64,000 nt of DNA from Halorarum halobium (GCF_032116555.1 NZ_CP134949.1:2914001-2978000); one strand, 5' to 3'; shown: positions 28,984 through 50,720, counted from the first letter of the stretch. The notes: generated by a model from the sequence alone, not told the origin. Numbers and translations: made by a program.

Positions 28984-29829
28984 CTACGACTCCTTGTCGG
29001 TGATCGATGCCGTGGATGCTTCCACGTATGCCGGTTCGAAGATGGTGTCCCAATCTTCACGGAAGATATCATCTTTTGCTTCGCGGACAATCTGTTGGGC
29101 ACCATCTGACAGAGGATATTCCACCTCGTCGAAGAGTATCGCCGATTCGATGCGCAAATGTCCCAGTACGAAGTCGCGAGCGGCCGCTTCGGGGACACCC
29201 ATTTCGACCGCTGTGTCGAGCCCTTCTCGGATGATCGTAAGACAGGTCGCAGTGAGTGTTTCCCCGAGAGCCGGTTCCAGGATGGCCATCTGCTCGGTGG
29301 TCAAACGATGGGCCTCGTCGACCGGGGCGTAGATGTCTCTCGCTATCGACTCCCCGACGTCGTAGTCCGATTCCGGCCCTTGTTCCAGCGCACAGACGAT
29401 GTTTTGTTCCGCCAGACCGCGTCCCCCGAAGAGGTCGGCCTGGGCCTCTCGGTCGGTTTCCGTTGCGAAGAGTTGCGGGTGACACGGATGGCTGATGAAA
29501 TACGTCACGTCGTCGCGTTCGTGCAAGACTCCCGCATGCGCGGCGGCGGGATCGAGTAGGAAGATGACCGTCCCTGCATCAAGGTGGGGAACTATCTCTT
29601 CGGTCAGGTCGCTGATTACCGTATCCGGAACTGCGAGGATCACGACGTCCGCCCCGGGGAGCGCCTCATCCTGGGACATCGGGGAGAGACCCCGTTCGGA
29701 AAGACGTTCGTGCCCTTCGGTACTCGGTTCGACACACCGGAGGTTGTAACTGGACACTCCGCCCAACTGGTCGACGATCCGGCATCCCATTTTGCCGCCG
29801 GCTCCCATGACTGTAATGGTGGTTGGCAT
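28984..29829 (-). CDS. apnO: D-apionate oxidoisomerase-like NAD-binding protein
   Basis: GAGGKMGCR, LDPAA, HPCHP, DLFGG, QNIVCAL.QGPE, HR.T.EQMAILEP.L.ET, GVPE.AARDF.LGH motifs as recalled for ApnO; alternative ATG at 29844. Confidence 0.8.
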   Translation of the reverse strand: MPTTITVMGAGGKMGCRIVDQLGGVSSYNLRCVEPSTEGHERLSERGLSPMSQDEALPGADVVILAVPDTVISDLTEEIVPHLDAGTVIFLLDPAAAHAGVLHERDDVTYFISHPCHPQLFATETDREAQADLFGGRGLAEQNIVCALEQGPESDYDVGESIARDIYAPVDEAHRLTTEQMAILEPALGETLTATCLTIIREGLDTAVEMGVPEAAARDFVLGHLRIESAILFDEVEYPLSDGAQQIVREAKDDIFREDWDTIFEPAYVEASTASITDKES

Positions 29830-29973
29830 GACGATATCGTCCATTGACTCAACGGGTATTTATAATCTTGCGTTCCTCACAGCTCGACCCGCGAGTCTCG
29901 TACTGCTGCTGGCACATCCTCGGGCACCCACTCTCGACTGATTCGACCTCCACCGACCCTGTTCACCGGTAGA

Positions 29974-30002
29974 TATAAATTCGAATCTTCGGATTTTCCG
30001 AA
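29974..30002 (+). promoter_or_regulatory. TATA box plus inverted-repeat operator upstream of the GH127-like/ABC operon
   Basis: TATAAAT at 29974-29980 and palindrome TTCGGA-ttt-TCCGAA at 29988-30002, just before ATG 30008. Confidence 0.5.
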
Positions 30003-30007
30003 CGGCA

Positions 30008-31720
30008 ATGACTGACGACTCGCCGGCAGAGACGAAACAAGTACCGGATACGCTCCTCTTGGAGGATCACGCAAAGCTGGGACTGAACGCACTCACTGGC
30101 TACGTTGACCAGCGACGGGATCACATGCCCTATTTCTACGCCAATCTGAAGGCTGACCCGGCGAAACTGTGCCACTCCCGATGGGATTACGGTTCGTCCG
30201 TAGGTCGTCTCACATCGTCGTTCGCACTTGCACGAGAGATGACGAAGAGCGACGACGGGGCAGACGTGGAGGAGCGCCTCCGTGAGAAGCTCCTCGATTT
30301 CTTCGAGGATGACGGTCTCAACTATCGCCAGGGGTCGGAATCGTACGAAAAGGTCGCGAACATGCACGACCAACGCTCAGTGCTTCTCGGTCTGGTTGGG
30401 TGGGCCCTTTCAACCGACAGCGAGGAACCCCGTGAGGCCGCCGCAGATCTCTGTGCCGGTCTCAAGCGGATCGCAGAGAAGGGGAACAATCACGATGTCG
30501 ACAAGGATGACTTCTGGTACTTCCCTTCGGCCGAACATCCCCGTGGCGGCTGGCAAGCCGACGATATGATCTACCTCGGCATGTCGGTCGACCCTGCACA
30601 CACGAGCGCTCGCATGATCGACCCGCTCGTGAAATTTTACGAACTCACGGGCAATCAGGACGCGCTCGATCTGGCAGAAAACTTCGCCCGCCACACCGTC
30701 GAGTACAGTGGCGCCTTCAACGCCGACGGGAGCTTCAACGACGGCCACGAGTTCCGATTCGGTCACTTCCACAGTCGGACGGTCAGTGTCGCGTCCATTG
30801 CCCGCTACGGAGCCATCACCGGTGACGCGTCCTACCTCACTTGGGCGGAGAACATCTACGACTGGATCCTCGATCAGGGGACGGCATTCGGCTGGTTCCC
30901 GGGAGCACTCATCGAGACCAAGGCCCACCACCACGAAACCTGCACCCTCACCGACATCATCGAGATCGGTATCACGCTCGCACGGAACGGGTACGAGGAG
31001 TACTGGGACGACGTCGAGCGCTTCGTCCGAAATCACCTGGTCGAAACGCAACTCACGGAAAACGACTGGATCGTTGAGGGGGAGGAGTCGATGAACGACG
31101 AGGAGTGCGTCTTCACAGACGTTGGAGAGCGCTCGCTCGGGGCGTTTCCGGGATGGGCCGCTCCGCACGATTTCGTCTGTGACGTTGACCACATGAACGA
31201 CATCATGACGTGTTGTGTCGCCTCCGGCGTTCGCGGACTGTTCCTGGCGTGGGACAACGCCGTCACCGACGAAGGAGACCACCTCGCGGTAAATCTGCTC
31301 GTGAACCGCCAAACCGAGCAACTGGACGTCGAAAGTTACCTCCCCCACCACGGACGACTCGAACTCACAGCCAACGTCGATCTTGACGAGGTTCGTGTTC
31401 GCATCCCCCAATGGGCTGAGAATTCGGAGGTGCTGCTCGAGCGGGAGGATGACGAGCAGACCCCCGAATGGCGCGGGACGTTCGTCACCGTTCCCGACCT
31501 GGCAGAGGACGAATCCGTCACGATCACCTTCCCGGTCAAGGAACGGGAATCGACCGAAGCCGCCTGGAATCGTGACTTCGCCGTCGACTGGCGCGGAGAC
31601 TCCGTCCGCTCCATCTCTCCGTCGGGAACGCATTACCCGCTATACGCCGATCGAGAAGTGTACGACGACGTTCCGATGCGAACTGTCTCGACCGACCGTC
31701 GACGGACCTTCAGTTGGTGA
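30008..31720 (+). CDS. GH127/GH146-like glycoside hydrolase (beta-L-arabinofuranosidase/aceric acid hydrolase fold), cytoplasmic
   Basis: GHFH, HETC, E-R...N and CC..SG motifs of Zn/Cys glycosidases, then SYLP..G and VRIPQWA; no signal peptide. Confidence 0.7.
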   Translation: MTDDSPAETKQVPDTLLLEDHAKLGLNALTGYVDQRRDHMPYFYANLKADPAKLCHSRWDYGSSVGRLTSSFALAREMTKSDDGADVEERLREKLLDFFEDDGLNYRQGSESYEKVANMHDQRSVLLGLVGWALSTDSEEPREAAADLCAGLKRIAEKGNNHDVDKDDFWYFPSAEHPRGGWQADDMIYLGMSVDPAHTSARMIDPLVKFYELTGNQDALDLAENFARHTVEYSGAFNADGSFNDGHEFRFGHFHSRTVSVASIARYGAITGDASYLTWAENIYDWILDQGTAFGWFPGALIETKAHHHETCTLTDIIEIGITLARNGYEEYWDDVERFVRNHLVETQLTENDWIVEGEESMNDEECVFTDVGERSLGAFPGWAAPHDFVCDVDHMNDIMTCCVASGVRGLFLAWDNAVTDEGDHLAVNLLVNRQTEQLDVESYLPHHGRLELTANVDLDEVRVRIPQWAENSEVLLEREDDEQTPEWRGTFVTVPDLAEDESVTITFPVKERESTEAAWNRDFAVDWRGDSVRSISPSGTHYPLYADREVYDDVPMRTVSTDRRRTFSW

Positions 31721-31924: not shown

Positions 31925-33316
31925 ATGCAAGAGGATTCACCTCTTAGTCGACGTAGAGCACTGCAGGCAATGGTTGCCACGGGGGTTCCACTGGCCGCCG
32001 GTTGTCTCGGCGGAGGCGACGGCACCGAGACGCCCGACAGTTCCGGTGGAGGTTCAAACAGTGACGGCAACGGCGAATCGGATTCGAATGACAATCAAGG
32101 AGGCAACTCCAACACGGAGATCAACTTCTGGGCGAAAGAACCCTCTCTCGAGGAGTTTATCCGGGAGCTGGCGAACGATTACGATGGGGCGCAGGTGGAC
32201 ACCAGTATCGTCCCCGAAGCTGACCTCGCCACGGAACTCAACTCCGCCCGGGCGGCGAACACCCTTCCGAACGTCGTTCAGTCCGCGATGGTGACGGGCC
32301 AGTTGATGGTGGAAAACGACATCACCGCGAACGAGCAGGCGACCCAGATCATCGAGGATCTGGGGGAAGACGACTTTTACGATCAGGCGCTCGCTCTCGT
32401 CAGCGCACCTGACGGTGGGTACTTCTCCGTCCCACACAGTATCGACATTCAGACGCTCGGGTGGCGAACGAGCAAGTTCGAGGAGGTCGGTCTCTCGGAA
32501 CCGCCGACGTCGTGGGAAGGGATCGAGGCCGCAGCCGAAGCCTTCCACGATCCAGACAATGACGAGTACGGGATCGGGATCGGAAGCGCCCACCACCGCT
32601 TCACTCGGCAGTGTTTTCAGCCGATCGCGCTCTCGAACGGCGCGCGCGTGTTCAACGAGGACGGCGAGATCATCTTCGACAATCCGGAGATGGTCGAGGC
32701 GATCGAGTTCTACGCGATGCTCCAGAGCGAATACGGTATCCCCGGCGATCACGACCACGTGCCGGTGTTCAACGCCTACGTGGACGAAACCATTCACTTC
32801 CTGTCCTTCTCGTCGTACATCCTCGGGTTGATCACCGACAACGGTGGCGAAGAGATGGCGCGTGACACGAATGCTGCGTTCACGCACAGCTCCAGCAACG
32901 GTGAGGCGGCCGCGGGTAACGCGACGCTGTTCACCGTCTTGGACTCGAACGCACAATCCCAACTCACCGCCTCCGAGGGCTTCGTCGAGTACATGTACAC
33001 GGGCGATGCGTACGTGGAGTGGCTGCACGACAACCTGGGCGCGTTCGGTCCGACACGCAAGTCGGTCTTCGAGAGCGACGCCTACCAGGACCACGACAAC
33101 TGGGACATCTGGGAAGAGGATCTGCAGGAGCGACAAGAGGTAATGGATTCGACGCTCCAACGGTTCGGCATCGTTAACGGAACACCCCAGACTGGGATCG
33201 GCGCTATCACGAGCCAACTCCTGATCGCCGAAGCGGTCAGTCGAGCCATCGACGGCGAAAACGCGAGCGACGTCGCTTCAGAAGTTGCAGACAAGATGCG
33301 AAACGCTATAGAATAA
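31925..33316 (+). CDS. Carbohydrate ABC transporter substrate-binding lipoprotein
   Basis: Tat SRRRAL, lipobox AAGC, Ser/Gly/Asn linker, PPTSWE motif of family 1 SBPs. Confidence 0.92.
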   Translation: MQEDSPLSRRRALQAMVATGVPLAAGCLGGGDGTETPDSSGGGSNSDGNGESDSNDNQGGNSNTEINFWAKEPSLEEFIRELANDYDGAQVDTSIVPEADLATELNSARAANTLPNVVQSAMVTGQLMVENDITANEQATQIIEDLGEDDFYDQALALVSAPDGGYFSVPHSIDIQTLGWRTSKFEEVGLSEPPTSWEGIEAAAEAFHDPDNDEYGIGIGSAHHRFTRQCFQPIALSNGARVFNEDGEIIFDNPEMVEAIEFYAMLQSEYGIPGDHDHVPVFNAYVDETIHFLSFSSYILGLITDNGGEEMARDTNAAFTHSSSNGEAAAGNATLFTVLDSNAQSQLTASEGFVEYMYTGDAYVEWLHDNLGAFGPTRKSVFESDAYQDHDNWDIWEEDLQERQEVMDSTLQRFGIVNGTPQTGIGAITSQLLIAEAVSRAIDGENASDVASEVADKMRNAIE

Positions 33317-33339
33317 AGACGTCCTCCCCCTATACTGCA

Positions 33340-34254
33340 ATGAACCTTATTACAAACGCGTTTCCGGTACTCGGAATCAGAAATCCGCGGAACATGACGA
33401 TCGAGGAAAAAGAGAAGTTCCTCGGTTATGCGCTCATCCTTCCGTCCATCCTCCTGGTGGGGATCGTGATCATCTACCCCCTGGTGTTCAACGCGTACCT
33501 CAGTTTTACCGAGGTGCCGTTGAACCCGGCAGAGTCACCAACGTGGGTGGGACTCTCGAACTATGACTCGCTCCTCCAGAGTTCCCAGTTCTGGGATTCA
33601 TTCAAAACGACGATCATCTTCACGTTCTTCTCGGACCTGTTCGCGCTGCTGATCGGATTAGCTGCCGGACTGCTGCTTCGGCGACAGTTTCGGGGAAGGC
33701 GGTTCGTCAGAGGACTCGTCCTGCTACCGTTCATCACGCCGGTGATCGCAGTGACGTTCACCTGGCAGTGGATGTTCGAACCCGTATACGGCGTCTTCAC
33801 GATGTTGTACACCACCCTCACCGGTGCGTCGACAGCTCCTGATATTCTCGGTCAAAGCGACACTGCGGTGTGGGTCGTTATCCTCTACAGCTCGTGGCGG
33901 TATTACCCGTTCGCCTTCCTGATGTTGATCGCCCGTCTCCAGGCGATTCCCGGGGAAATGTATGAAGCGGCGAAGATCGACGGGGCCAGTCGTTTCTCAC
34001 AGTTCAAGGACATCACGTTTCCCGAGATCAAGTACATCCTCGGAACCATCTTCATCCTCCGGTGGGTGTGGAACTTCAACACGTACGCGGACGTCTGGCT
34101 CGTCTCAAGCGAGGTGACGACACTGCCCATCTTCACCTATCAAACCGCATTCTCGACCTTCGAACAGGGCATGGCATCGGCCATCTCAATGATCCTGTTC
34201 GTGTTCTTGATGATCTTCGTGTTCGTTTACGTCTCGGTGGTGATAGAATGGTAA
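33340..34254 (+). CDS. Carbohydrate ABC transporter permease
   Basis: WVGLSNY, LQAIPGEMYEAAKIDGAS (EAA motif); start may be 33394. Confidence 0.93.
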   Translation: MNLITNAFPVLGIRNPRNMTIEEKEKFLGYALILPSILLVGIVIIYPLVFNAYLSFTEVPLNPAESPTWVGLSNYDSLLQSSQFWDSFKTTIIFTFFSDLFALLIGLAAGLLLRRQFRGRRFVRGLVLLPFITPVIAVTFTWQWMFEPVYGVFTMLYTTLTGASTAPDILGQSDTAVWVVILYSSWRYYPFAFLMLIARLQAIPGEMYEAAKIDGASRFSQFKDITFPEIKYILGTIFILRWVWNFNTYADVWLVSSEVTTLPIFTYQTAFSTFEQGMASAISMILFVFLMIFVFVYVSVVIEW

Positions 34255-35201
34255 ACGACGACGCCCAGACGGACGGGGGCCGATCGATCGAGGACGGATC
34301 GCCCCTCGCGACAGTACTCCACAACACCAGGTCCGCGTTCGCCATGGTGTTCAAGCGCCAGAGCATCGAGCAAAGCATCTGGGAGAAACTGGCGTTCTAC
34401 GCCGGAATCGTGGGCTTGCTCGTGTTCACGCTGTTCCCGTTCTACGTGATGCTCCTGACGAGCATTACCTCGAGTGCCGAACTCTACTCGATTCCGTTCG
34501 ACATCGTCCCGGAGACGTACACACTCGACCACTACAGCTACGTCCTGCTGTCCGAGGATTTCCCGTTCCTCACCTACTTCACCAACTCGTTCATCGTCGC
34601 CTCGGTAACGAGTGGTCTGGCGGTGATCGTCGCGACGTTCGGCGGGTATAGCTTCGCCCGACTCGACTATCCGGGACGGAAACTCATCGCTCGCCTCGTG
34701 TTGGTCGTCTACCTCTTCGGCGGGATCGTCCTCGTCGTCCCGCTCTTTCGCGTGATCGCCGCACTGGGCCTCATCGACACGCTGGGCAGTCTGATGATCA
34801 CCTATCTCGTCATCGTCTTACCGCTATCACTGTATCTCCTGGGGAACTACTTCAGGAGCATCCCCGAGGAGATAGAGGAGGCGGCCTTGGTCGACGGCTA
34901 CTCGCGATTGGAGACGATTTTCTACATTACGCTCCCGCTTAGCGCACCCGCAATCGTCGCCGTGTTCCTGTTCGCGTTCATCATCGCGTGGAACGATTAC
35001 TTGTTCGCGAGCATCTTCCTCGACTCCCCCGAGAAGTACACCCTCATCATCGGGGTCGAGTATCTGAACGTCCAGTACACGCGGGTTTGGGGTCGAATCA
35101 TGGCGGCATCGGTGGCGACGAGCGCCCCGATCATCGTCTTCTTCCTCTACCTGGAGAAGTACCTCGTCGAAGGACTTACCACCGGGGGAGTGGAGGGCTA
35201 A
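34248..35201 (+). CDS. Carbohydrate ABC transporter permease
   Basis: Start MVNDD at 34248 overlapping the upstream stop; IPEEIEEAALVDG, AWNDYLFA. Confidence 0.92.
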   Translation: MVNDDAQTDGGRSIEDGSPLATVLHNTRSAFAMVFKRQSIEQSIWEKLAFYAGIVGLLVFTLFPFYVMLLTSITSSAELYSIPFDIVPETYTLDHYSYVLLSEDFPFLTYFTNSFIVASVTSGLAVIVATFGGYSFARLDYPGRKLIARLVLVVYLFGGIVLVVPLFRVIAALGLIDTLGSLMITYLVIVLPLSLYLLGNYFRSIPEEIEEAALVDGYSRLETIFYITLPLSAPAIVAVFLFAFIIAWNDYLFASIFLDSPEKYTLIIGVEYLNVQYTRVWGRIMAASVATSAPIIVFFLYLEKYLVEGLTTGGVEG

Positions 35202-35205
35202 TCAA

Positions 35206-36372
35206 ATGAGCGAGGAGAAACACCAGTCCACGTTGCTCCAAGAACGGGACGGTGATGCATTCGAGTCGGGTGAGAGTGCCGCCGTCGAACTCGCTGACGT
35301 CAGGAAAGAGTACGGAGACATCGTCGCAGTCGACGACATCGATCTCCGGATCGAACCGACCGAGTTTTTCGTGTTACTCGGCCCGTCCGGCTGTGGCAAG
35401 ACGACCACCCTCCGAATGGTCGCCGGGCTCGAAACACCGACTAGTGGTCGTATCTCGATCGGGGACGAGGAGGTCACTGACATGCTCCCCCGCCACCGTG
35501 ACATCTCGATGGTGTTCCAGAGTTACGCGCTGTATCCACACAAGACCGTCAAGGAGAACCTCCGGTTTCCATTGAACAAGATGGATCTCTCGTCGGCCGA
35601 GAAAGCCGACCGAATCGCTGCAACGGCGGAGATGCTCGAGATAGACGACCTCCTCGAAAAAACTCCAGGGCAGTTGAGCGGCGGACAACGACAACGCGTC
35701 GCCGTCGGTCGGACCGTCGTCAGGGAACCGAGTGTATTCCTGATGGATGAACCGCTGAGCAACCTTGATGCCAAACTACGCGTCCAGACCAGGAGCGAAC
35801 TGCGACAACTCCAGCAGGAACTCGAGACGACCACGCTGTACGTGACCCACGACCAGGAGGAGGCGATGAGTCTCGCCGACCGGATGGCGATCATGAACGA
35901 CGGCGACATTGAACAGGTCGGGACGCCCCAAGAGATCTACGAGTCGCCGACGAACGCGTTCGTCGCTGGCTTCCTCGGGGAACCCGCAATTAACTTCCTC
36001 CCCGTGACCGATCGGACCGGAGGCAAGATCGTCGTCGGGAGCCTTCCCACAGGCGTGTTCGGAGATACGTTCCCGGTGGAGACAGAGCGGTTCGGCATCC
36101 GGCCAGAAGACATCGACGTCCTGGACTCCATGGACGGCGAGTGGGAAGACGTCGACGGGAAGAGCGCTCCCGTGGAGTTCACGGTACGATTCATCGAACC
36201 GCTCGGGAACTCATACGAAATCGAACTCACGAGAGAGGAAACCTCGTTGAAGGCTCACACTGTCGATCTGCCCGCCTCCGTCGAAGAGGGCTCGACAGTT
36301 CCGATCGTCTTCGACCTGCAGAACGTGCTCGCCTTCGATGCGAACGGCGATACCATCACTACGGAGGAATAA
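35206..36372 (+). CDS. Sugar ABC transporter ATP-binding protein (MalK type)
   Basis: GPSGCGKT, MVFQSYALYPH, LSGGQRQR, DEPLSNLDAKLR. Confidence 0.94.
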   Translation: MSEEKHQSTLLQERDGDAFESGESAAVELADVRKEYGDIVAVDDIDLRIEPTEFFVLLGPSGCGKTTTLRMVAGLETPTSGRISIGDEEVTDMLPRHRDISMVFQSYALYPHKTVKENLRFPLNKMDLSSAEKADRIAATAEMLEIDDLLEKTPGQLSGGQRQRVAVGRTVVREPSVFLMDEPLSNLDAKLRVQTRSELRQLQQELETTTLYVTHDQEEAMSLADRMAIMNDGDIEQVGTPQEIYESPTNAFVAGFLGEPAINFLPVTDRTGGKIVVGSLPTGVFGDTFPVETERFGIRPEDIDVLDSMDGEWEDVDGKSAPVEFTVRFIEPLGNSYEIELTREETSLKAHTVDLPASVEEGSTVPIVFDLQNVLAFDANGDTITTEE

Positions 36373-36375
36373 TCC

Positions 36376-37518
36376 ATGGCGAACGTCACTCTCGACGGGA
36401 TCACAAAGATCTACGACGACGCGAAAGGGACGGAAAGGGCGGTAGACGACATATCACTGGCGGTCGACGAGGGAGAACTCCTCGTGCTCGTCGGCCCGAG
36501 CGGTTGTGGAAAGAGTACGACGCTCCGGTTGATAGCCGGCCTCGAGGCCGTGAGTCAGGGGGCTATCGAGTTCGATGAATCCGAGGTCCAGACGCTGACC
36601 CCGAGCGACCGGAACGTCGCAATGGTGTTCCAGAACTACGCGCTCTATACGAAGATGACCGGCGAGCAGAACATCGAGTACGGGTTGAAACACTCGATGG
36701 ACATCCCGGAATCGGAACGGAAACGGCACGTTCACGAGACCGCTGAACTCCTCGGTATCGATGATCTCCTCGACGACCTGCCCGCAGAGATGAGTGGCGG
36801 ACAGAAACAACGAATCGCGCTCGCCAGAGCCATCGTTCGCGACCCTGCCGTGTTCTTGCTGGACGAACCGCTGAGTAACCTCGATGCGAAGCGGCGTGCC
36901 CAGATGCGGACCGAAGTCCAGCGAATTCACGAGGAGATCGATGTAGCCACGATCTACGTGACCCACGACCAGAAGGAGGCTATGACGATGGCCGATCGCC
37001 TCGCCGTCATGAACGACGGGGAAATCGAACAAATCGCACCCCCTGAGGAGGCCTATGACGACCCGAACAACCGCTTTGTCGCCACGTTCCTGGGTAGTCC
37101 GGCGATGAATGTTCTCGAGTGTGAAACGGAGCGACGTGGCGAGGAGGTGCAGTTGATCAGTTCGGCGAACAAGCGACCACTCCAGCACCTCCCGCGGGAA
37201 CTGGTCCCGGAGGAGTACGACCGGAGTCACCTCGACGTCGGTTTGCGCCCGGAGGACCTCAAGTTATCCACGGACACCAACGAGTACCCCGCGAACGCCG
37301 AAGTCGTCGTCTCCGAGTACCAGGGGAAGGAGAACTTCGTCTACCTCGACTTCGACGGCATCGAGTTGACCGTCCGAACCGGCGACGGTACCGATCTGCG
37401 GCAAGGAATGACGGTGAGTTTCACCGTCGCGCCGGCGAACGTCTACCTCTTCGACCCCGATTCGGGAACGTCCCTGAAGACGCGCTCAGCCGTGCGGGAA
37501 CCGGCGATCGTCGACTGA
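36376..37518 (+). CDS. Second sugar ABC transporter ATP-binding protein (MalK type)
   Basis: GPSGCGKS, MVFQNYALY, MSGGQKQR, DEPLSNLDAK. Confidence 0.94.
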   Translation: MANVTLDGITKIYDDAKGTERAVDDISLAVDEGELLVLVGPSGCGKSTTLRLIAGLEAVSQGAIEFDESEVQTLTPSDRNVAMVFQNYALYTKMTGEQNIEYGLKHSMDIPESERKRHVHETAELLGIDDLLDDLPAEMSGGQKQRIALARAIVRDPAVFLLDEPLSNLDAKRRAQMRTEVQRIHEEIDVATIYVTHDQKEAMTMADRLAVMNDGEIEQIAPPEEAYDDPNNRFVATFLGSPAMNVLECETERRGEEVQLISSANKRPLQHLPRELVPEEYDRSHLDVGLRPEDLKLSTDTNEYPANAEVVVSEYQGKENFVYLDFDGIELTVRTGDGTDLRQGMTVSFTVAPANVYLFDPDSGTSLKTRSAVREPAIVD

Positions 37519-37888: not shown

Positions 37889-38548
37889 ATGAGCAGTGTA
37901 TGCTTCTTCCACACGGGAGCAGTGCTAACGGAGACGTTCGACGAACTAGCATCGGAATACATTCCGGACACCGAGTACTACCACATGGTAGACGAAAGCG
38001 TCATCGACGAGTTGCTCTCGGAGGGCGCGTTGACGCCCGGGATCACACAACGGATCTGCTCACAACTCACGCTCGCCGAGCAGGCGGGGGCGGACGTCGT
38101 CCTTGATACCTGCTCGAGCACATCCCCCGCGGTGAACGTGGCCCGGCAAATCGTCGATATTCCGATCGTCAAGATAGACGATCCGATGACGGAACGGGCA
38201 GTCGAAGTCGGTGACCGGATCGCAGTGATCGCGACGGCGGCGTCGACACTCGAACCGAGCACTGAACTGGTCGAGCGCAAAGCAGCCCGGACCGACAGAC
38301 CCATCGAGATTCAGTCGTCGCTCGTCGACGACGCGTTCGAAGCACGCCAGAACGGTGAGACGGAGCGTCACGACCGGCTCGTCACCGAACGCGCTCGCGA
38401 GGTCGCGGACGACGTCGACGTGATCGTGCTGGCGCAGGCGTCGATGAGCCACCTCGAGAACGAACTGTCTGAAGAGACTGGCCTGACGGTGCTCTCAAGC
38501 CCCGACTTAGCGATGGAGCGGATCGCAGACATCGCCCACTCGTCGTAG
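37889..38548 (+). CDS. Asp/Glu/hydantoin racemase family protein
   Basis: GADVVLDTCSS, IAVIAT..ST, DVIVLAQASM, VLSSP. Confidence 0.8.
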   Translation: MSSVCFFHTGAVLTETFDELASEYIPDTEYYHMVDESVIDELLSEGALTPGITQRICSQLTLAEQAGADVVLDTCSSTSPAVNVARQIVDIPIVKIDDPMTERAVEVGDRIAVIATAASTLEPSTELVERKAARTDRPIEIQSSLVDDAFEARQNGETERHDRLVTERAREVADDVDVIVLAQASMSHLENELSEETGLTVLSSPDLAMERIADIAHSS

Positions 38549-42934: not shown

Positions 42935-45900
42935 ATGCCATCTCCTCCCCGGATATCGGAACGTCCAACGGTCATCGCTCCGAAAGTAGAGTACGAGAGG
43001 GCACCGAACAACGTGGTTCCCAGCGAACCGCGATTTTCGTGGCAGGCGAACGCCGACCGGCGAGGAGTCGTCCAGACTGCATATCGGGTCATCGTCGGCC
43101 GGACGAGAGACGATGTCGTAGAGAAACGGGGGTCACTCTGGGATTCGGGGAAAGTGGACGGATCCGATTCGACGTCCGTCGTGTACGACGGTGTTCCCCT
43201 GGAGGCGGACAGCGACTACTACTGGAGGGTGCGGATCTGGGACGAGGACGACCGACCCTCGAAATGGTCCGACCTCTCCAGCTTCTCGACTGCGCTCTCC
43301 GGCGAGCACGAGTGGGATGGCGAGTGGATCAGCTACCAACCGGGCGCCGGCGACTCGAACGGCTACCGGAGTCGCTGGCATCCCGCCACCAAGGACCCCG
43401 AGGAGTGGGTACAGGTCGACCTCGGTGAGTCGCGTCCGATCACGCGGATCGAACTCCATCCGGCGTCGCCGTGCGACGGTCCGGAGACGCCCGATGGCGT
43501 GGTGGTCTCGAACGTCTACTCGATCGACGATGACCTTGAGAGCGGTCCCAGGGGATTCGGGTTCCCCGTTCGCTACCGGATCGAGGTTTCGGACGACGAG
43601 ACGTTCGCCCAGTCGAGCGTCGTCGTCGACAGAACCGAGGAGGCGCAAGCGAACCCGGGGACCGATTCGCGCTCGTTCGACGTGAACACGACCGCACGGT
43701 ACGTCCGGGTCGTTGCCACCGACCTGTACACGTTCGATCCGGCGACTCCTCCAAGAGACCGGTTTGGCCAGCTACGGACCGAGTTTGCCCCGGAGGCCTA
43801 CGGGTCGTGGCAGACCTTCGCCCTCGCCGGCCTCGGAGTGTACAACGGCGGTGAAACCGACGTCGCAGCCGACCGGCCGGTGACCGCATCGTCCAGTGTC
43901 GAGCGAGAGGGGTGGGGCCGATCCAACCTCGTCGACGGATGGTACGCGTCGCGGACGGCGGCCGCCTCACCGCTGTTTCGGACCGACGTGGCGCTCGATG
44001 GAGATGTCGTACGTGCCAGAGCGCACGTCTGCACGCTCGGGTACGGTGAACTGTATGCCAATGGCGAACGAGTGGGTAACGAGGTTCTCAACCCAGGGTG
44101 GACCGAGTACGACGAGCGGGCGCTGTACAGCACGTACGACCTCAGTGAACACCTCGAAGCGGGCGAGAATGCACTGGGCCTCTGGCTCGGGCGGGGATGG
44201 TTCTCGAAGAACGCGCAGGGATGGACGGGCTTCGGTTCGCCGCGTGCCCTCCTGCATCTGACCCTCGAGTACGCGGACGGTTCGACCCGGACGATCGGGA
44301 CCGACGAGTCGTGGACGGCGACGGAGAGCCCCATCGTCGAACACGACCTCTACGATGGCGAGCGGTACGACGCCCGCCTGGAACAGCCGGGATGGACGGA
44401 ACCAGATTTCGACGGCGAATGGGAGTACGCGACGGTCGTCGAGGGCCCGGACGGGGAGCTCACACCCCAGCGACTCCCGCCGATCCGCGTGACGGAACAG
44501 ATCGATCCGGTTGAGGTTCACGACCACGAGAAGGGCCCGATCTTCGATTTCGGCCAGAACCTCGTCGGCTGGGTGGCGATCAACGTACACGGCGCTGACG
44601 CCGGCGACGAGATAACGATTCGGCACGCAGAGACCCTCCTGGACGATGGAAGTCTCGCGATGGGAGATCTCCGAACGGCCGACGCGACGGACACCTACGT
44701 CGCTGCCGATTCGAGCCGGGCAACTTACCGACCTCGATTTACGTACCACGGATTCAGATACGTGCAGGTGTCGAACTACCCGGGCGATCTCTCGACGGAC
44801 GACCTACGCGCACACGTCGTCCATTCCGATCTCGACCGGATCGGTTCGTTCGACTGCTCGAATACGGACCTCCGTCAAGTGCAACGGAACGCGATGTGGG
44901 GCCTTCGGGGTAACGTACACAGCGTCCTCACGGACTGTCCACAGCGCGACGAACGGTTCGGCTGGACCGGCGATAACCACATCGCCGGCCGGTCACTGAT
45001 GTTCAACTTCGACGCGGCGCTGTTTTACGAGAAGTGGATGAACGACCACGCTGACGTCCAGTCGGACCACGGCTACGTGGCGGACACGATCCCGTACGGC
45101 TATGGATCTACGCCAGAAGACCCGACCTGGGGCATCACGCAGGTCACCATTCCCTGGCACCTGTACCGGCACTACGGTGACCGTGGCGTCCTCAAGCGTC
45201 ACTACGAACGGATGCGTCGGTACGTCGACTACTGGGATGAACAGTCGAACGACGGGATCATTCCCGACAAGTACGGGAAATACGGTGACTGGCTCGCGTT
45301 CGAAAACGCCGACGGGCGACGGGGACTGCCGTTCGACCTGTTCAATAGCGCGTTCCATTACCACACGACGAATCTGTTCGCGAAGATAGCGACGACGCTC
45401 GGAAACGAGGCTGACGCCGCCACGTATCGACGGCGCGCAGAACACATCGCTGACGCCATCAACAACGAATTCTTCCGAGCTGATGAGGCGCGGTACGGAC
45501 CTGGAACGCAAGCATCGTACACGGTTCCGCTGTTCGTGGGACTCGTCCCGGACGAACACGTGAACGACGTCGCCACGCGGTTGGCTGAGACTGTCCGTTC
45601 GGACGGTTGCAAACTGAAGACCGGCTTCCTCGGCACACGTCCGCTCCTCCATACCCTCGTCGACCATGGGTACGAGGAGATCGCCTACGAAGTCGTGAGC
45701 CAACCGGAGCAGCCCGGATGGGTGTACATGGTCCGGCAGGGCGCGACGACGATGTGGGAGCGCTGGGACTCGGACTCCCGGATCGGTTCCGGGATGAACT
45801 CGTTTAATCACTCTCCGTTCACGTTCGTCTCCGAGTACCTCTACGAGGCGATCGCCGGACTCCGACTGGGCGACGATCCAGTCACTGACCATGCGACGGT

Positions 45901-46225
45901 CGCACCGACGCTCGTTGACGCCCTCGACTGGGCCGAAGGGCAGGTGGAGACGCCCAACGGCGAGTTCACGGTGGCCTGGGAGCGGACTGACTCCGACCGG
46001 GGATACGAACTCTCCACGACAGTCCCATGGAACACGACCGCAACGGTTCGCCTGCCCGGTGCGGCTGACTCGCTCGTCACCGAGTCCGGCACGCGACTCG
46101 CTGGGACGACCGGTGACGTTCCGGACGGTATCGACGCTGTTCGCCAAGAGGAGGGCGATCTCGTCGTCGAAGTCGGTTCCGGGACGTACCAGTTCGCCGT
46201 TGAATCGGAGCAGCCCTCCCGCTGA
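42935..46225 (+). CDS. GH78 alpha-L-rhamnosidase with an inserted discoidin/F5-8-like domain
   Basis: PRFSW, LWDSGKV, DFGQNLVG, FTYHGFRY, TDCPQRDERFGWTGD, GATTMWERW, MNSFNH; no signal peptide. Confidence 0.92.
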   Translation: MPSPPRISERPTVIAPKVEYERAPNNVVPSEPRFSWQANADRRGVVQTAYRVIVGRTRDDVVEKRGSLWDSGKVDGSDSTSVVYDGVPLEADSDYYWRVRIWDEDDRPSKWSDLSSFSTALSGEHEWDGEWISYQPGAGDSNGYRSRWHPATKDPEEWVQVDLGESRPITRIELHPASPCDGPETPDGVVVSNVYSIDDDLESGPRGFGFPVRYRIEVSDDETFAQSSVVVDRTEEAQANPGTDSRSFDVNTTARYVRVVATDLYTFDPATPPRDRFGQLRTEFAPEAYGSWQTFALAGLGVYNGGETDVAADRPVTASSSVEREGWGRSNLVDGWYASRTAAASPLFRTDVALDGDVVRARAHVCTLGYGELYANGERVGNEVLNPGWTEYDERALYSTYDLSEHLEAGENALGLWLGRGWFSKNAQGWTGFGSPRALLHLTLEYADGSTRTIGTDESWTATESPIVEHDLYDGERYDARLEQPGWTEPDFDGEWEYATVVEGPDGELTPQRLPPIRVTEQIDPVEVHDHEKGPIFDFGQNLVGWVAINVHGADAGDEITIRHAETLLDDGSLAMGDLRTADATDTYVAADSSRATYRPRFTYHGFRYVQVSNYPGDLSTDDLRAHVVHSDLDRIGSFDCSNTDLRQVQRNAMWGLRGNVHSVLTDCPQRDERFGWTGDNHIAGRSLMFNFDAALFYEKWMNDHADVQSDHGYVADTIPYGYGSTPEDPTWGITQVTIPWHLYRHYGDRGVLKRHYERMRRYVDYWDEQSNDGIIPDKYGKYGDWLAFENADGRRGLPFDLFNSAFHYHTTNLFAKIATTLGNEADAATYRRRAEHIADAINNEFFRADEARYGPGTQASYTVPLFVGLVPDEHVNDVATRLAETVRSDGCKLKTGFLGTRPLLHTLVDHGYEEIAYEVVSQPEQPGWVYMVRQGATTMWERWDSDSRIGSGMNSFNHSPFTFVSEYLYEAIAGLRLGDDPVTDHATVAPTLVDALDWAEGQVETPNGEFTVAWERTDSDRGYELSTTVPWNTTATVRLPGAADSLVTESGTRLAGTTGDVPDGIDAVRQEEGDLVVEVGSGTYQFAVESEQPSR

Positions 46226-46334
46226 CTGCGCCCAAGACACGCCTGAACGATGGTTGTGGGCGATCCGTTCGGATCTTCGAGCCGGATACCCCCTCGCTTT
46301 ATTAGAATCCATCTCTCGTGTCTATCCGTCTGTC

Positions 46335-47636
46335 ATGAGCGAACAGTATGGACACGAACGCGAGTTCGTTCGAACGTTCTTCACGTCTCCGACCGCGGTG
46401 AAGGGGGAGGACGACTCCGCCAAGATGATCCGCAGCGCGGCCGGACTCCGCGGGCTCCAGGCCCCCGACGTCTGGGTCCCCGACAACGAGGACGCGACCG
46501 CGCCCGCCATGCGTGAGGAGGGCGTCGAGAACATCGTCGAGGTCGTCGCCGAGCACGGTGCCGAGTTCCCCGGCGAGATCCACCCCCGCGTCGTCTGGCA
46601 CCGCGACAGCCCCACCACGCGTCACTCGGGGTTCCAGCAGATCATGGAGATCGCCGACCCCGACAACGGCGCGGTCGAGCACGTCGACGGGTTCGTCATT
46701 CCGGAAGTGGGTGACGTCGACGACTGGAAGAAGGCCGACGAGTTCCTCACCATCGTCGAGACCGAGCACGGACTGGAGGAGGGGAGCCTCTCGATGTCCG
46801 TGATCGTCGAGAGCGGCGAGGCCGAACTCGCCATGGCCGACCTCCGCGAGGAGATGGGCAAGCCCTCGAACAATCTCGAACGGCTGTTCATGCTCGTCGA
46901 CGGCGAGGTCGACTACACCAAGGACATGCGGGCGATGACGCCGACCGGCGAACTGCCGCCCTGGCCCGAACTCCGGCACAACACCTCCCGCGGTGCCAGC
47001 GCCGCCGGCCTGATCGCCGTGGACGGCCCGTACGACGACATCCGCGACGTCGAGGGCTATCGCGACCGGATGCGGGACAATCGGGCCAAGGGGATGACCG
47101 GCATCTGGTCGCTGACGCCCACACAGGTCGAAGTGGCGAACACCGACCCGCTCCCGCCGACAACCGGAAGCTGGCTGCTCTCGGTCGGGGACGACGAGGT
47201 CGACCTCCCCGCCGAGGGCGACCGGGCCGTCTACGACGGCGAGGACCTCTCGCTGGCGGAGACCGACGACGGGTACGTCCTGGGTGTCGACGGCGACGAG
47301 CACGAACTGGACGCCGACGGCCTGCACGAGGAACTGCTCGACCGCATCTCGTACGTGCCGAGCATGGACGACATCGTCGACTCGATGGAGGAGTTCGAGG
47401 CCGCAAAGGAGGCGGGCAGGGGCGCGATCGCCATGACCCAGTCCACGACGCTCGTCCTCGACGGCGTCGAGGTGGCGTTCAGCACGGATCGGATGTGGGA
47501 CGAGGCGACCTACCAGGCGGCCCAGACGCCGATCACGCTGTTCCAGGACGTCTACGAGCACCGACCCGACCAGCACGCGGAACTCGAGGAGATGTACGGC
47601 CCCGACGTCGTCCAACGGGCGAGGAACCTCGGATAG
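46335..47636 (+). CDS. aceB: Haloarchaeal malate synthase (MSH)
   Basis: 433 aa from ATG 46335; REFVRTFFTSPTAV.GEDDSAKM, APDVWVPDNEDATAP, VDGEVDYTKDMRA, MWDEATY, as recalled for Haloferax AceB. Confidence 0.9.
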   Translation: MSEQYGHEREFVRTFFTSPTAVKGEDDSAKMIRSAAGLRGLQAPDVWVPDNEDATAPAMREEGVENIVEVVAEHGAEFPGEIHPRVVWHRDSPTTRHSGFQQIMEIADPDNGAVEHVDGFVIPEVGDVDDWKKADEFLTIVETEHGLEEGSLSMSVIVESGEAELAMADLREEMGKPSNNLERLFMLVDGEVDYTKDMRAMTPTGELPPWPELRHNTSRGASAAGLIAVDGPYDDIRDVEGYRDRMRDNRAKGMTGIWSLTPTQVEVANTDPLPPTTGSWLLSVGDDEVDLPAEGDRAVYDGEDLSLAETDDGYVLGVDGDEHELDADGLHEELLDRISYVPSMDDIVDSMEEFEAAKEAGRGAIAMTQSTTLVLDGVEVAFSTDRMWDEATYQAAQTPITLFQDVYEHRPDQHAELEEMYGPDVVQRARNLG

Positions 47637-47687
47637 TTCCGTCCCCGGGAGGCGATGCCGGTCCGCTCGACGATCAGCAAGTCGGTA

Positions 47688-50600
47688 TCAAACGATCGCT
47701 TCGTGAACCTTCTCGATGGGATGAGACACGCGCTCACCGTATCGGTCGTCGAGTTGTGTCCGACATGATGCCCCCGGTGCCACGACGCTCTCACCCGGAC
47801 TTCGGTCCACCTGGTCGTACAGGATCCGTCCGATGGCCTTCGAGAGGTCGTAGTGTTCGGCCTCGTATCCGAAGGAGCCAGCCATGCCACAACAGCTGGA
47901 GTCGAGGGAGTCGACTTCGTATCCGACCGCCCGTAACACCGCTGCGGTGTGGTGGTCGCGGTTCAACGCCGACTGGTTGCAGTGGCCATGGTACGTGAGG
48001 TGTTCTCCGGACACACGGAACTCGATCTCGTCGTACACTCGATACGTGTTCAGGTACTCACATATCCCGTAGGCGTTCGCGGAGACGGTCCGAACGTCCC
48101 CGCCGGAGAGTAGGTCGAGATACTCGTCCTGGAACATCGCCGCATCCGACGGCTCGACGAAGACGACCGACCATCCATCCTCGAGGAAGGGTGCCAGCGC
48201 GTCGACGTTAGTCGACGCCCGGTCGCGAGCCTCGTCCAAGAGACCCATCGAGAACGCCGCTCTTCCGCTCGGTTCGACTTCACTGGGAGCGAGGACTCGA
48301 ACGTGGACGTTTGCCTCCTCGAGGACGTCCACGGCGGCCTTTCCGGGTTCGGGGTAGCTGTAGTTCGTGTACGTGTCCGGAAACAGGAGGACTTTGTCGC
48401 TCGAGGCATCGATCGAGACACGGTTCTCGCGGGACCGCGCCCAGTCGACGAATGTCTCTCGCCGAAACGTGGGCGTATCGCGCTCGGCTGCGATACCGAA
48501 CAGCCGTTCTCCGAGGAAGTCGGCACCGGGAAGCTGTTGCATCCAGTTCGAGAGCGGCGCGAGGTTGCTTCCGATGGCACTGACTCGGTCGACGTTGGCA
48601 AACAGTCGCTCGCGAACCGTGCGTCCCGCCTCCTGATGGTATTCGTGTTTCACTTCAGCCTTGAGTTTCGCCAGGTCGACACCGGTGGGGCAGTCGCTCT
48701 TACAGCCCTTACAGCCCACGCAGAGGTCCAGGACCTCCGTCTGGAATCGTTCGGAGTACAGTTCCGATTCAGGGAGTTCCCCACTGATCGCAGCGCGGAG
48801 AAGGTTCGCCCGGCCACGCGTCGTCTGGATCTCCTCGTTGGATGCACGGTAGGTCGGGCACATGACGTCGCTACCCGTCTGGCGACACGTCCCGCATCCG
48901 TTGCAAAGTTCGACGAGATCGGAGAACCCACCTTCGTCGGTGAAATCGAGCGTCGTCTGTGGCTCAAGCGACTGATAGTCCGCGCCATACCGGAGGTTCT
49001 CGCGCATGTCGGCACCGACGCCACGTTCGGAGTCCGGCCCGATGTCATCCGGCCCGTCGCGGTAGACGACGTTACCAGGATGCATGTCCCATCCGGGATC
49101 GAAGGCTGTCTTGACCGCCTTGAACGCTGCCCAGAGATCTTCACCGTACATCTTGGGATTGAATTCGGTGCGAGCCATCCCGTCGCCGTGTTCGCCCGAG
49201 AACGCACCGTGGTGTTCGAGTACCAGGTCAGTCACGTCTTCGGTGATCGAGTGCATCGTCTCGATGCCCGCCTCCGTCTTCAAGTTCAGAACGGGGCGGA
49301 TGTGAAGCGTTCCCGACCCAGCGTGGGCGAAGTAGGCAGCCGAGGTACCGTGGGTGTCGAGGACGGCTTCGAACTTCTCGACGTACTCGGCCAATTCGGC
49401 CGGCGGGACCGTCGCATCTTCGATAAACGGGTACGGCTTTGGGTCCCCTTCGAGTGACATGAGTAGAGGGATGGCCGCTTTTCGCAATTTCCAGATGTCG
49501 GCCTGGTCCTCGTCGGTGTACGCTTCGACGACATCGAACGCGTTACCGTCATCGAGAAACCGTTCGTTGGTCGCGGCGATGGCCGCCTCGAAATCGTCGT
49601 GGAGTTCCGAGTCGTACTCGAGCATCAAGGCGGCCGCCGTTCCTTCAGGTAGGGGTTCGACGTACTCGGCATACCCGTCCGACTCGGAGGCGAGCCGGAA
49701 GACCTCATCGTCCATCAGTTCGACGGCGCTGACGTCGTACTCCAGGGCGACCGGAACCGCCTGCATCGCCTTGACCAGATCGTCGAAACAGTACAAAGCG
49801 AGCGTCGTCGCCTCGGGCACGGTCACCAGTGAGATCTCGGCTTCGACGATGACGCCCAGCGTGCCTTCTGCGCCGACGAACAGTTTCGCGAGGTTGATCA
49901 CCTGCTCGCCGTCTTCGTTCTCGTAGATCACCCGGTCGAGATTGTAGCCGGACACGCGGCGTTTGAGTTCGGGGTAGCGTTCGGCGATCTCTTCTTCATT
50001 GTCCTCGACAAGTTGGCGAACGGTCTCGTACACGTTGGCCTCACGGTCGTCTTTCCCGACGATGTGGTCGTATTCCTCGCTATCGATGACGACCTCACGG
50101 GCGTGGAGGAGGGTACCGTCGGAGAGCACGGCCTTCACTTCTTCCGTATACGCGTCGGTGATGCCATAGCGCACGGAGTGTGCACCGGTCGAGTTGTTGC
50201 CGATGCCGCCACCGACGGTCGCACGATTCGACGAGGCGGGGTCCGGCGCGAACTGTAGTCCGTGCTCGGCCAGCACCGCGTCGAGGTCGTCCTGGACGAC
50301 GCCCGGTTGGATCCTCGCTCGCTGCTCGTCGGGGCGAACGTCGAGCACCTCGTTCATGTGTCTGGACATATCAAGGATGACACAACCCGGGCCGACAGCC
50401 TGACCCCCGAGAGATGACCCCGTTCCCCTTGGCATCACCGGGACATCGTGGTCCGTCGCTACCTCGACTGCCGTCTGCACGTCCTCGACCGAGGTGGGAT
50501 AGACGACGCCGGCGGGCCGAGACTGGTAAATGCTGCCGTCCGTGGCGTAGAGAATTTGTGCGTATTCGTCGAAGCGAACGTCACCGGCAACTGCGGCTCC

Positions 50601-50720
50601 GAGGTCAGTCGCGAGCGCCCGATACTCCGGAACGACATCGTCGACTTCACGATCGAGATCTGAAGGATTGGCCGGCGATTCTACTGGCTGTACCGACGGC
50701 TCTCGCTCTTGGGCGCCCAT
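47688..50720 (-). CDS. FAD-binding plus Fe-S oxidoreductase (GlcD-GlcF/Dld-type fusion; glycolate or lactate dehydrogenase-like)
   Basis: YATDGS, PRGTGSSLGGQ, GAEGTLG, HAGSGTLH, SGEHGDG; ferredoxin motifs CNGCGTC and CVGCKGC..DCP; CCG motif CCGMAGSFG. Confidence 0.9.
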   Translation of the reverse strand: MGAQEREPSVQPVESPANPSDLDREVDDVVPEYRALATDLGAAVAGDVRFDEYAQILYATDGSIYQSRPAGVVYPTSVEDVQTAVEVATDHDVPVMPRGTGSSLGGQAVGPGCVILDMSRHMNEVLDVRPDEQRARIQPGVVQDDLDAVLAEHGLQFAPDPASSNRATVGGGIGNNSTGAHSVRYGITDAYTEEVKAVLSDGTLLHAREVVIDSEEYDHIVGKDDREANVYETVRQLVEDNEEEIAERYPELKRRVSGYNLDRVIYENEDGEQVINLAKLFVGAEGTLGVIVEAEISLVTVPEATTLALYCFDDLVKAMQAVPVALEYDVSAVELMDDEVFRLASESDGYAEYVEPLPEGTAAALMLEYDSELHDDFEAAIAATNERFLDDGNAFDVVEAYTDEDQADIWKLRKAAIPLLMSLEGDPKPYPFIEDATVPPAELAEYVEKFEAVLDTHGTSAAYFAHAGSGTLHIRPVLNLKTEAGIETMHSITEDVTDLVLEHHGAFSGEHGDGMARTEFNPKMYGEDLWAAFKAVKTAFDPGWDMHPGNVVYRDGPDDIGPDSERGVGADMRENLRYGADYQSLEPQTTLDFTDEGGFSDLVELCNGCGTCRQTGSDVMCPTYRASNEEIQTTRGRANLLRAAISGELPESELYSERFQTEVLDLCVGCKGCKSDCPTGVDLAKLKAEVKHEYHQEAGRTVRERLFANVDRVSAIGSNLAPLSNWMQQLPGADFLGERLFGIAAERDTPTFRRETFVDWARSRENRVSIDASSDKVLLFPDTYTNYSYPEPGKAAVDVLEEANVHVRVLAPSEVEPSGRAAFSMGLLDEARDRASTNVDALAPFLEDGWSVVFVEPSDAAMFQDEYLDLLSGGDVRTVSANAYGICEYLNTYRVYDEIEFRVSGEHLTYHGHCNQSALNRDHHTAAVLRAVGYEVDSLDSSCCGMAGSFGYEAEHYDLSKAIGRILYDQVDRSPGESVVAPGASCRTQLDDRYGERVSHPIEKVHEAIV

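Follow-up and report, generated by a model that had tools for sequence, protein, structure and literature searches.

A block of about 22 kb in the chromosome of the haloarchaeon Halorarum halobium raises the question of which sugars an archaeon might degrade with the help of a RuBisCO-like protein (RLP). The block occupies positions 28984 to 50720 of the window, by which we mean the whole stretch of 64,000 nucleotides that was analysed (GCF_032116555.1, NZ_CP134949.1:2914001-2978000). A preliminary description, made from the sequence alone, had read the block as an archaeal D-apionate pathway with built-in glycolate disposal, formed by a protein resembling the D-apionate oxidoisomerase ApnO, a form IV RLP, a DUF1537 kinase, the malate synthase AceB and an FAD/Fe-S protein. 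All of these genes are present as intact open reading frames (ORFs). Left out of that account were a GH127-like hydrolase (30008-31720), a sugar ABC transporter, a racemase-fold gene (37889-38548), an extended short-chain dehydrogenase/reductase (SDR) and a GH78 enzyme. The block probably encodes an archaeal form of the RLP-dependent pathways for branched sugar acids, carbon-conserving and with two entries. The genes that carry this reading are the following:

28984..29844, minus strand: ApnO-like D-apionate oxidoisomerase (PF16896; 47% identical to C. necator F8GV06)
30008..31720, plus strand: GH127/GH146-like Zn-Cys glycosidase of a separate subfamily, candidate aceric acid hydrolase (weak PF07944 match)
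37889..38548, plus strand: one-cysteine Asp/Glu-racemase-fold protein, candidate aceric acid aldose-ketose isomerase (PF01177)
38654..39916, plus strand: form IV RLP of non-OiaX type, candidate transcarboxylase/hydrolase (OiaX model score, residues and trees)
39913..41292, plus strand: OiaK-like DUF1537 kinase, ATGA-coupled to the RLP (44% identical to C. necator OiaK F8GV08, 31% to OtnK)

The RLP, its kinase and the ApnO-like protein

In bacteria, decarboxylation has been assigned to the RLP of A. radiobacter K84 and transcarboxylation/hydrolysis to that of X. autotrophicus (the relevant part of PMC6302742), and route 2, which employs OiaT, starts from apionate (pathway outline in PMC13753588). 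These two RLPs are absent from our trees, where three NCBI-named OiaX proteins and F8GV07 of C. necator N-1, encoded between the ApnO F8GV06 and the OiaK F8GV08, stand in for them. We take F8GV07, as a proxy only, to be the RLP of an OiaT route because route 2 begins with apionate and the operon has an MFS carrier, an assignment that is partly deduced. Against the OiaX model NF042437, with its cut-off of 700 bits, the window RLP scored 496 bits, compared with 775 for the OiaX of Shinella and 446 for F8GV07, and the NCBIfam matches of the window RLP included no OiaT model. The KDDE motif at residues 185-188, the serine at the K177 position (Ser161) and the ATGA overlap with the kinase gene at 39913-39916 are as previously described. 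The active site comprises E26, N107, K159, K185-D-D-E188, H274, R275, H307 and K314, and retains the equivalents of RuBisCO E60, N123, K175, K201, D203, E204, H294, H327 and K334. At the positions of E60, N123 and H327, where the window RLP has E26, N107 and H307, the three OiaX-named rows have D, G and Q. Among 49 columns that separate these three rows from the ten-row F8GV07 clade, both groups being defined from the tree, the window RLP matches the F8GV07 clade at 36, OiaX at 7 and neither at 6. Judged by the failed OiaX cut-off and the kept E60/N123/H327 equivalents, the RLP is not an OiaX. Two other positions were set aside as markers. The serine at the K177 position does not discriminate OiaT from OiaX, since none of the 63 in-group RLPs has lysine there (all have Ser, Ala or Asn), and Trp versus Ser/Thr after SSGQ, which tracks ApnO operons in most bacterial non-OiaX rows and is Trp in all haloarchaeal rows, was not used.

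In a quick tree of 66 rows, the haloarchaeal RLPs formed a single clade, sister to that of F8GV07 (SH-aLRT 91), and in a careful tree of a 32-row subset this clade (100/99) was again sister to, not inside, the F8GV07 clade (96/94). OiaX stood apart in both, so that the phylogenetic comparison suggested earlier placed the window RLP outside the OiaX clade, with the reservation of a topology test that is weighed below. The proposed ApnO/OiaK/RLP route in an archaeon is upheld to the extent that the RLP is of non-OiaX type and most like that of the C. necator apionate operon; its place is only that of a sister to the OiaT proxy clade.

The lack of tetrose-phosphate isomerases had also been advanced as an argument. 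It extends to the whole genome (99.9% complete), in which we found no RpiB-family match, one triosephosphate isomerase only and no tblastn match to R. etli LerI or DerI. Local absence is not diagnostic because the OiaX cluster of Shinella also lacks these isomerases locally and EryH/EryI are often located apart from the apn genes (as mentioned in PMC13753588); the genome-wide absence is the better argument. In a related haloarchaeal locus (L021), genes for pyruvate kinase and enolase lie between those for the kinase and ApnO. The chemistry of the window RLP would quite probably be OiaT-like rather than that of OiaX, and the predicted route to 3-phosphoglycerate plus glycolate is likely.

For the kinase, the NCBIfam models gave 457 bits with OiaK (NF042436, cut-off 700), 184 with OtnK and 73 with DtnK, all under the cut-offs. 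OiaK is its best model by more than 270 bits, and by these models it is unlikely to be of the threonate/erythronate type that had been considered as an alternative.

F8GV06 is the C. necator N-1 protein named D-apionate oxidoisomerase, and we count the 47% identity of the ApnO-like protein to it as inside the range of characterised ApnOs, which are 39-80% identical to AaApnO (values from PMC13753588). Motifs in the alignment, rather than the AaApnO sequence itself, served to transfer the residue list of PMC13753588; by this mapping, the metal, NAD and substrate residues of AaApnO (E32, D68, D92, H113, H116, F133, E183, E188, F218, H222 and S239) were found to be kept as E39, D74, D98, H119, H122, F139, E190, E195, F225, H229 and S246. 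D-apionate is fairly probable as a real substrate of the island. As a route, the earlier proposal of apionate is thus supported; as an account of the locus it was incomplete, a second, ApnO-independent entry being probable. Two haloarchaeal ApnO-like genes (G143:C9:662117 and G305:C11:26310) reside in genomes with no match to the window RLP and may use another decarboxylase.

A cassette with a probable second entry

Loci of Paenibacillus and Cohnella show the gene order of the window, namely GH127-like, racemase-fold, RLP and kinase, with GH78 nearby and no ApnO. Among 151 Paenibacillaceae, a close GH127-like gene occurred in 7 and had racemase and RLP genes directly behind it in all 7, although the cassette of G508 lies on a short contig and L064 is without the kinase. 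RLP was found in 14 of the 151 and a close racemase in 8; the 6 genomes whose GH127 genes all fall in the distant group have no RLP. Searches of 10 Paenibacillaceae genomes bearing the cassette, of unstated completeness, did not reveal ApnO in 7. Each of the remaining 3 has ApnO in a different cluster that contains a further RLP, and in the trees this RLP separates from those of the cassettes. The same pattern was seen in metagenomes, from which 80 of 95 related loci were kept and grouped into 57 clusters at 90% identity. With a threshold of 36% identity, fixed after a gap in the identities had been seen, the 31 clusters at or above it had a racemase nearby in 22 cases, RLP in 15 (one of a distant 29% type), kinase in 13 and ApnO in 1, and each of the four was absent from all 26 clusters below it. 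Restricting the count to loci with at least 4 kb on both sides gave racemase in 12/17, RLP in 10/17, kinase in 9/17 and ApnO in 0/17, compared with 0/6 below 36%.

The neighbours of the cassette include GH2, GH78, GH106, GH95, GH42 and a GDSL esterase, and a pectin locus of Rufibacter has RLP, kinase and racemase without ApnO. Two loci (L070 and L169) also bear an isomerase, split transketolase and FGGY kinase set resembling that of the non-oxidative apiose route, and the cassette there would need another substrate. The core cassette contains no dehydrogenase, so its substrate must arrive as oxidised as a 3-oxo-acid. These observations suggest that a second, ApnO-independent entry, made up of the GH127-like and racemase-fold proteins, probably feeds the same kinase and RLP and that apionate is not the only substrate. 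Two Cohnella genomes (G402 and G403; L252 and L253) have two GH127-racemase-RLP-kinase cassettes and a separate apionate RLP cluster, and hence three RLPs of this branch each; the apionate cluster of G402 includes GH140.

The racemase-fold gene directly precedes the RLP gene both in the window and in Paenibacillaceae. Its product has invariant C75-S76-S77, H161, Q183 and S185 and lacks the second catalytic cysteine of Asp/Glu racemases, the site reading LAQAS, LAQGS or MAQAS; an Atlas search returned the family name only. A cysteine base in aldose-ketose isomerisation has a precedent in RpiB. Sets of racemase-fold, DUF1537 kinase and class II aldolase genes without RLP in Haloprofundus and Haladaptatus (L121:5527-8648 and L122:5687-8660), adjoined by a 330-residue gene of no Pfam family, possibly represent a decarboxylating variant of the entry.

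In the GH127-like protein, E310, C312, C402 and C403 are invariant, presumably forming the Glu/three-Cys zinc site known from HypBA1. Its structure model (pLDDT 93) has a barrel plus beta-sandwich fold with best Foldseek matches in GH127/GH146, all of these structural matches being at 13-16% identity. Instead of the RLP cassette, a PhyH dioxygenase gene and one of the enolase family accompany a distant GH127-like subfamily (L065-L067), which occurs as two tandem paralogues.

In 401 Halobacteria, RLP was present in 12, ApnO in 9 and the racemase in 5. Besides RLP, 6 of the 12 genomes contain ApnO alone, 2 contain the racemase alone and 3 contain neither; the genome of the window is the single one with both. 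Outside this sample, genome G406 has ApnO, racemase, RLP, kinase and the GH127-like hydrolase on one contig. This contig (C11; L031, L068, L258, L259) carries a set of about 60 kb resembling one for rhamnogalacturonan II (RG-II), with GH106, several GH78, GH2, fucosidases, a BNR protein, a GDSL esterase, the GH127-like gene, ApnO and racemase-RLP-kinase. At three further loci (L019, L021 and L022), an SDR, a VOC/glyoxalase and a 260-residue protein of no Pfam family recur upstream of RLP-kinase, perhaps as a third entry route.

Candidate glycolate genes and the frame of the insert

At its right end, the block holds the two genes on which glycolate disposal had been based:

46335..47636, plus strand: haloarchaeal malate synthase AceB (NF041315, 830 bits, above the cut-off of 780)
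47688..50720, minus strand: FAD/4Fe-4S GlcD-GlcF-type fusion, candidate glycolate dehydrogenase and right end of the insert (67-74% identical homologues adjoin aceB at 11 of 40 loci)

The fusion protein scored 245 bits against the GlcD model TIGR00387, under the cut-off of 568. aceB occurs in 60 of 151 Halobacteria. The analysis covered 40 of the 63 aceB places outside the genome of the window; aceB is adjoined by isocitrate lyase at 22 of these 40, by a full-length GlcDF-like fusion at 11, by a GlcD-only match at 1 and by both kinds at none. In 10 of the 11 genomes having the aceB-GlcDF pair there is no RLP match, so the pair is a generic unit. Near 20 other haloarchaeal RLP loci (up to 10 kb on each side, some shorter), aceB was found at none and an intact GlcDF at one. 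Glycolate disposal as a built-in mark of the pathway is accordingly not supported. The reading of the fusion protein itself fares better. Its constant linkage to malate synthase favours glycolate as the substrate, and genes of LUD type for L-lactate reside elsewhere in the genome; deletion of LUD-domain genes impairs growth of H. volcanii on rhamnose (growth results in PMC8305020). A glycolate rather than an L-lactate enzyme is the more likely assignment from the aceB linkage, in line with the preliminary description.

The absence of an aceA neighbour holds locally; aceA lies elsewhere in the genome, unlinked to aceB (C1:2551470-2552735, stop to stop), and aceB-GlcDF pairs are common, which excludes this absence as a pathway sign. 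The methylaspartate cycle as a role for aceB was likewise rejected, there being no MAAL_C match over the cut-off. aceB is present in 4 of 6 other RLP genomes with ApnO and in 0 of 5 without it, counts in which related genomes are not independent and which lend the earlier proposal weak support. The glycolate could alternatively come from the L-rhamnose (rhc) route acting on a pentonate, by analogy with the formation of pyruvate and glycolate from 2,4-diketo-3-deoxypentonate (the reaction as given in PMC12994016).

The genome contains a second aceB-GlcDF pair, a core copy that has an FAH-family neighbour. Its aceB (C1:1636631-1637929) differs in its orientation to the GlcDF partner, and the two GlcDF genes are only 71% identical in DNA; the island aceB (window 46354-47622) is 100% identical over 1269 bp to C1:1636643-1637911, and the ends differ. 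This is the only repeat listed of at least 500 bp at at least 99% identity. The island aceB has a core-like GC3 of 0.92, compared with 0.68-0.77 for its neighbours, and identity between the aceB paralogues of three other genomes is 83-84%. The identical copies could reflect gene conversion or misassembly. Three haloarchaea (L139/L154, L141/L144 and L145/L156) have two malate synthases, one next to isocitrate lyase and one next to a GlcDF-like fusion, in an apparent division between acetate and glycolate.

The host genome has 3.68 Mb, the window being C1:2914001-2978000; its acidic proteins and its orthologues in haloarchaea are those of a haloarchaeon. A region of about 120 kb at 53-60% G+C holds the window on a chromosome of 68% G+C, which suggests an acquired island. 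Within it, the block from 28984 to 50720 sits exactly inside a split rhc cluster. In Haloferax gibbonsii, rhcE, rhcD, an LLM gene, an IclR gene and rhcF stand uninterrupted in a row; their orthologues in the window (69-84% identical to those of H. gibbonsii) lie on either side of the block, with rhcC to the right, and the block of 22 kb therefore reads as an insertion. No rhcB orthologue (best match 36%) and no match to the mutarotase were found in the genome. The flanking rhc genes and the remaining genes of the insert are:

25317..26351, plus strand: rhcE orthologue, 2-keto-3-deoxy-L-rhamnonate dehydrogenase (69% to H. gibbonsii rhcE), left half of the split cluster
26549..27754, plus strand: rhcD orthologue, L-rhamnonate dehydratase (76% to H. 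gibbonsii rhcD)
27757..28785, plus strand: F420-type LLM oxidoreductase of the rhc cluster (84% to the H. gibbonsii gene directly before rhcR), left boundary of the insert
31925..37518, plus strand: sugar ABC transporter (binding protein 31925-33316; permeases 33340-34254 and 34248-35201; ATPases 35206-36372 and 36376-37518)
41591..42466, plus strand: extended SDR, candidate aldose dehydrogenase for rhamnose and/or apiose (PF01370; 52% homologue in the pectin region of G406)
42935..46225, plus strand: GH78 alpha-L-rhamnosidase (domain/profile matches)
51587..52345, plus strand: rhcR-like IclR regulator (70% to the H. gibbonsii IclR before rhcF), right half of the split cluster
52459..53316, plus strand: rhcF orthologue, 2,4-diketo-3-deoxy-L-rhamnonate hydrolase (76%)
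53423..54292, plus strand: rhcC orthologue, L-rhamnonolactonase of the amidohydrolase type (72%), possible stand-in apionolactonase in a genome without an ApnL match

The IclR gene at 51587 was considered as a glycolate regulator and rejected, being an orthologue of the rhc cluster. The F420-type LLM oxidoreductase is a conserved member of the rhamnose cluster shared by the window and H. gibbonsii. Farther to the left, 13232-21275 is a region for peptide use, with a TldD-like protein, two DAO-type oxidoreductases, an S9 peptidase and an Opp-type transporter, whose binding-protein ORF (18321-20030) aligns only to positions 5-284 of 368 in the Pfam model and may be truncated.

Proposed pathway, alternatives and known systems

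From gene identities, residues, phylogeny and co-occurrence, we infer every substrate and product of the following scheme. Whether the island serves the core of RG-II side chain B (aceric acid-rhamnose-apiose), with two branched sugars converging on one kinase and one RLP, appears to us evenly balanced. The ABC transporter would import an AceA-Rha-Api fragment, from which the GH127-like enzyme would free aceric acid and GH78 would cut rhamnose from apiose. Rhamnose would pass through the diketo-hydrolase route of the rhc cluster, for which orthology is evident, to pyruvate and L-lactate. At the first entry, apiose would be oxidised to apionate, with the extended SDR and RhcC as candidates, and converted by ApnO to 3-oxo-isoapionate. 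At the second, the racemase-fold protein would isomerise aceric acid to a 2-ketose without redox change. Aceric acid is 3-C-carboxy-5-deoxy-L-xylose (structure as given in PMC5698469 and PMC13501991), and moving its carbonyl from C1 to C2 yields HOCH2-CO-C(OH)(COOH)-CH(OH)-CH3, which is 3-oxo-isoapionate plus one methyl group. The kinase may then phosphorylate the primary hydroxyl adjoining the ketone, and the RLP may transfer the carboxyl group and hydrolyse the C-C bond in an OiaT-like manner, giving 3-phosphoglycerate with glycolate from apionate or with lactate from aceric acid (L-lactate by our reading of the Fischer projection). To clear glycolate, the island would have recruited a pair that is generic in haloarchaea, the GlcDF-like protein with AceB. 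The aceric acid entry is slightly favoured. More tentatively, and at just under even chances, we propose a complete catabolism of L-aceric acid by a new GH127-like hydrolase, a one-cysteine isomerase, the DUF1537 kinase and the RLP, with no carbon lost and with the same kinase and RLP handling apionate.

Several findings weigh against this scheme. An approximately unbiased (AU) test did not reject a clade of haloarchaea plus OiaX (p=0.095), and the tree topology alone is thus not decisive. BT1003 (5mqo), a GH127 enzyme that releases aceric acid from RG-II chain B (the sections on chain B in PMC5698469 and PMC13501991), is at Foldseek rank 21 with 14% identity, no closer than arabinofuranosidases, is missed by the profile of the GH127-like protein and is absent among the VIA structural matches listed (the best 50). 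Moreover, the barrel of the GH127-like protein matches AGE-family epimerases (Z 23.2, rmsd 3.5, 353 aligned) as well as the whole chain matches GH127 (Z 21.3, rmsd 4.1, 459 aligned). Close orthologues of the racemase occur with RLP and without the GH127-like gene in haloarchaea G115 and G340, and with a DUF1537 kinase and a class II aldolase, with no RLP nearby, in Haloprofundus and Haladaptatus; distant homologues lie in mannosidase or amino-acid loci. Further entries to the kinase-RLP pair exist, as both ApnO and the racemase are missing from 3 of the 12 RLP haloarchaea. The genome search found no ApnL, no GH140 and no match to GH2-, GH106- or GH137-like queries for the outer chain-B enzymes, and an ApsD query gave only matches of 23-27%, leaving apionate supply and outer trimming unexplained; the organism would be a cross-feeder. 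Finally, a member of the ApnO family is promiscuous: AaApnO also oxidises erythronate, ribonate, lyxonate and L-rhamnonate (Table 1 of PMC13753588).

This promiscuity would suit a reading in which the substrates are unbranched acids (erythronate, ribonate or lyxonate), with ApnO as the dehydrogenase of a bypass and with OtnI replaced by the racemase-fold protein in the role of 2-oxo/3-oxo-acid isomerase. The sets of racemase, DUF1537 kinase and class II aldolase in Haloprofundus and Haladaptatus point the same way. We consider it improbable, since the kinase is much nearer to OiaK than to OtnK or DtnK and the tight linkage to a glycosidase and to pectin hydrolases would be left unexplained. 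No more probable is an RLP acting as a decarboxylase, which would give a ketose-1-phosphate for an aldolase, or as an oxygenase that brings O2 onto the enediolate as reported for the hamamelose RLP, with the glycolate genes serving another source, for instance the rhc route acting on a pentonate. The kept E60/N123/H327 equivalents, the failed OiaX cut-off and the lack of LerI and DerI in the genome argue against it; it draws on the AU test, on a class II aldolase in the genome (C1:2406461), on the tie of a hamamelose-use RLP to 3-phosphoglycerate and glycolate (cited in PMC8914248) and, for the glycolate, on the diketo-deoxypentonate reaction and the FAH-family gene beside the core aceB-GlcDF copy.

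Somewhat less remote, though still unlikely, is that the kinase and RLP serve D-apionate alone, the GH127-like protein being an apiosidase or beta-L-arabinofuranosidase and the racemase-fold gene an accessory. The intact ApnO residues, an RLP in 7 of the 9 ApnO-bearing haloarchaea, the closeness of the GH127-like gene to ApnO (within 1.5-3.5 kb) in G406 and G407, the aceB counts given above and the missing GH140, for which another apiosidase may be needed, would all agree with it. It is difficult to reconcile with cassettes that lack ApnO in 7/10 Paenibacillaceae genomes and in 30 of 31 metagenome clusters, and with a core cassette that contains no dehydrogenase, yet apiose needs oxidation to become a 3-oxo-acid.

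The apiose route via ApnO, OiaK and RLP is already known from bacteria. In the literature, of which few subscription papers were covered, we found no catabolic route for aceric acid, nothing tying haloarchaea to apiose and rhamnogalacturonan and no description of these haloarchaeal RLPs. If true, the scheme would provide testable enzymes for a missing step of pectin turnover and a new reaction for a racemase-fold family that is widespread and as yet unassigned; carboxyl transfer by RuBisCO-like proteins would reach the archaea and gain a second substrate. For such tests the window is well suited, since one near-complete genome combines both entries with the transporter and with disposal of glycolate and of lactate.

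With route 2 of D-apionate (ApnO-OiaK-OiaT), the window shares an ApnO with its catalytic residues, an OiaK-like kinase, a genome without tetrose-phosphate isomerases and an RLP sister to the clade of the C. necator N-1 operon (F8GV06/F8GV07/F8GV08). It differs in its archaeal host, in identities of 44-54%, in a kinase under the OiaK cut-off, in having an ABC transporter and glycosidases instead of an MFS carrier, and in the added second entry gene of racemase fold and the adjoining glycolate genes. Oxidative route 1 of D-apiose with OiaX (Rhizobiaceae; NF042437) has the same RLP branch, the same kinase family and ApnO, whereas the window RLP is under the cut-off, has E/N/H where OiaX has D/G/Q and belongs to a separate long clade, in a genome without orthologues of LerI, DerI, ApsD and ApnL. 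Compared with BT1003 of B. thetaiotaomicron, the GH127-like protein has a GH127/146-type fold and the Zn-Cys motif, and related loci place it among GH2 and GH78; however, at 14% identity, missed by the profile and not the best structural match, it belongs to a subfamily of Paenibacillaceae and haloarchaea. As in the Haloferax rhc cluster, the window has rhcE, rhcD, the LLM gene, the rhcR-like IclR gene, rhcF and rhcC at 69-84% identity, in a version that is without a detected rhcB orthologue or mutarotase match and is interrupted by the 22-kb insert.

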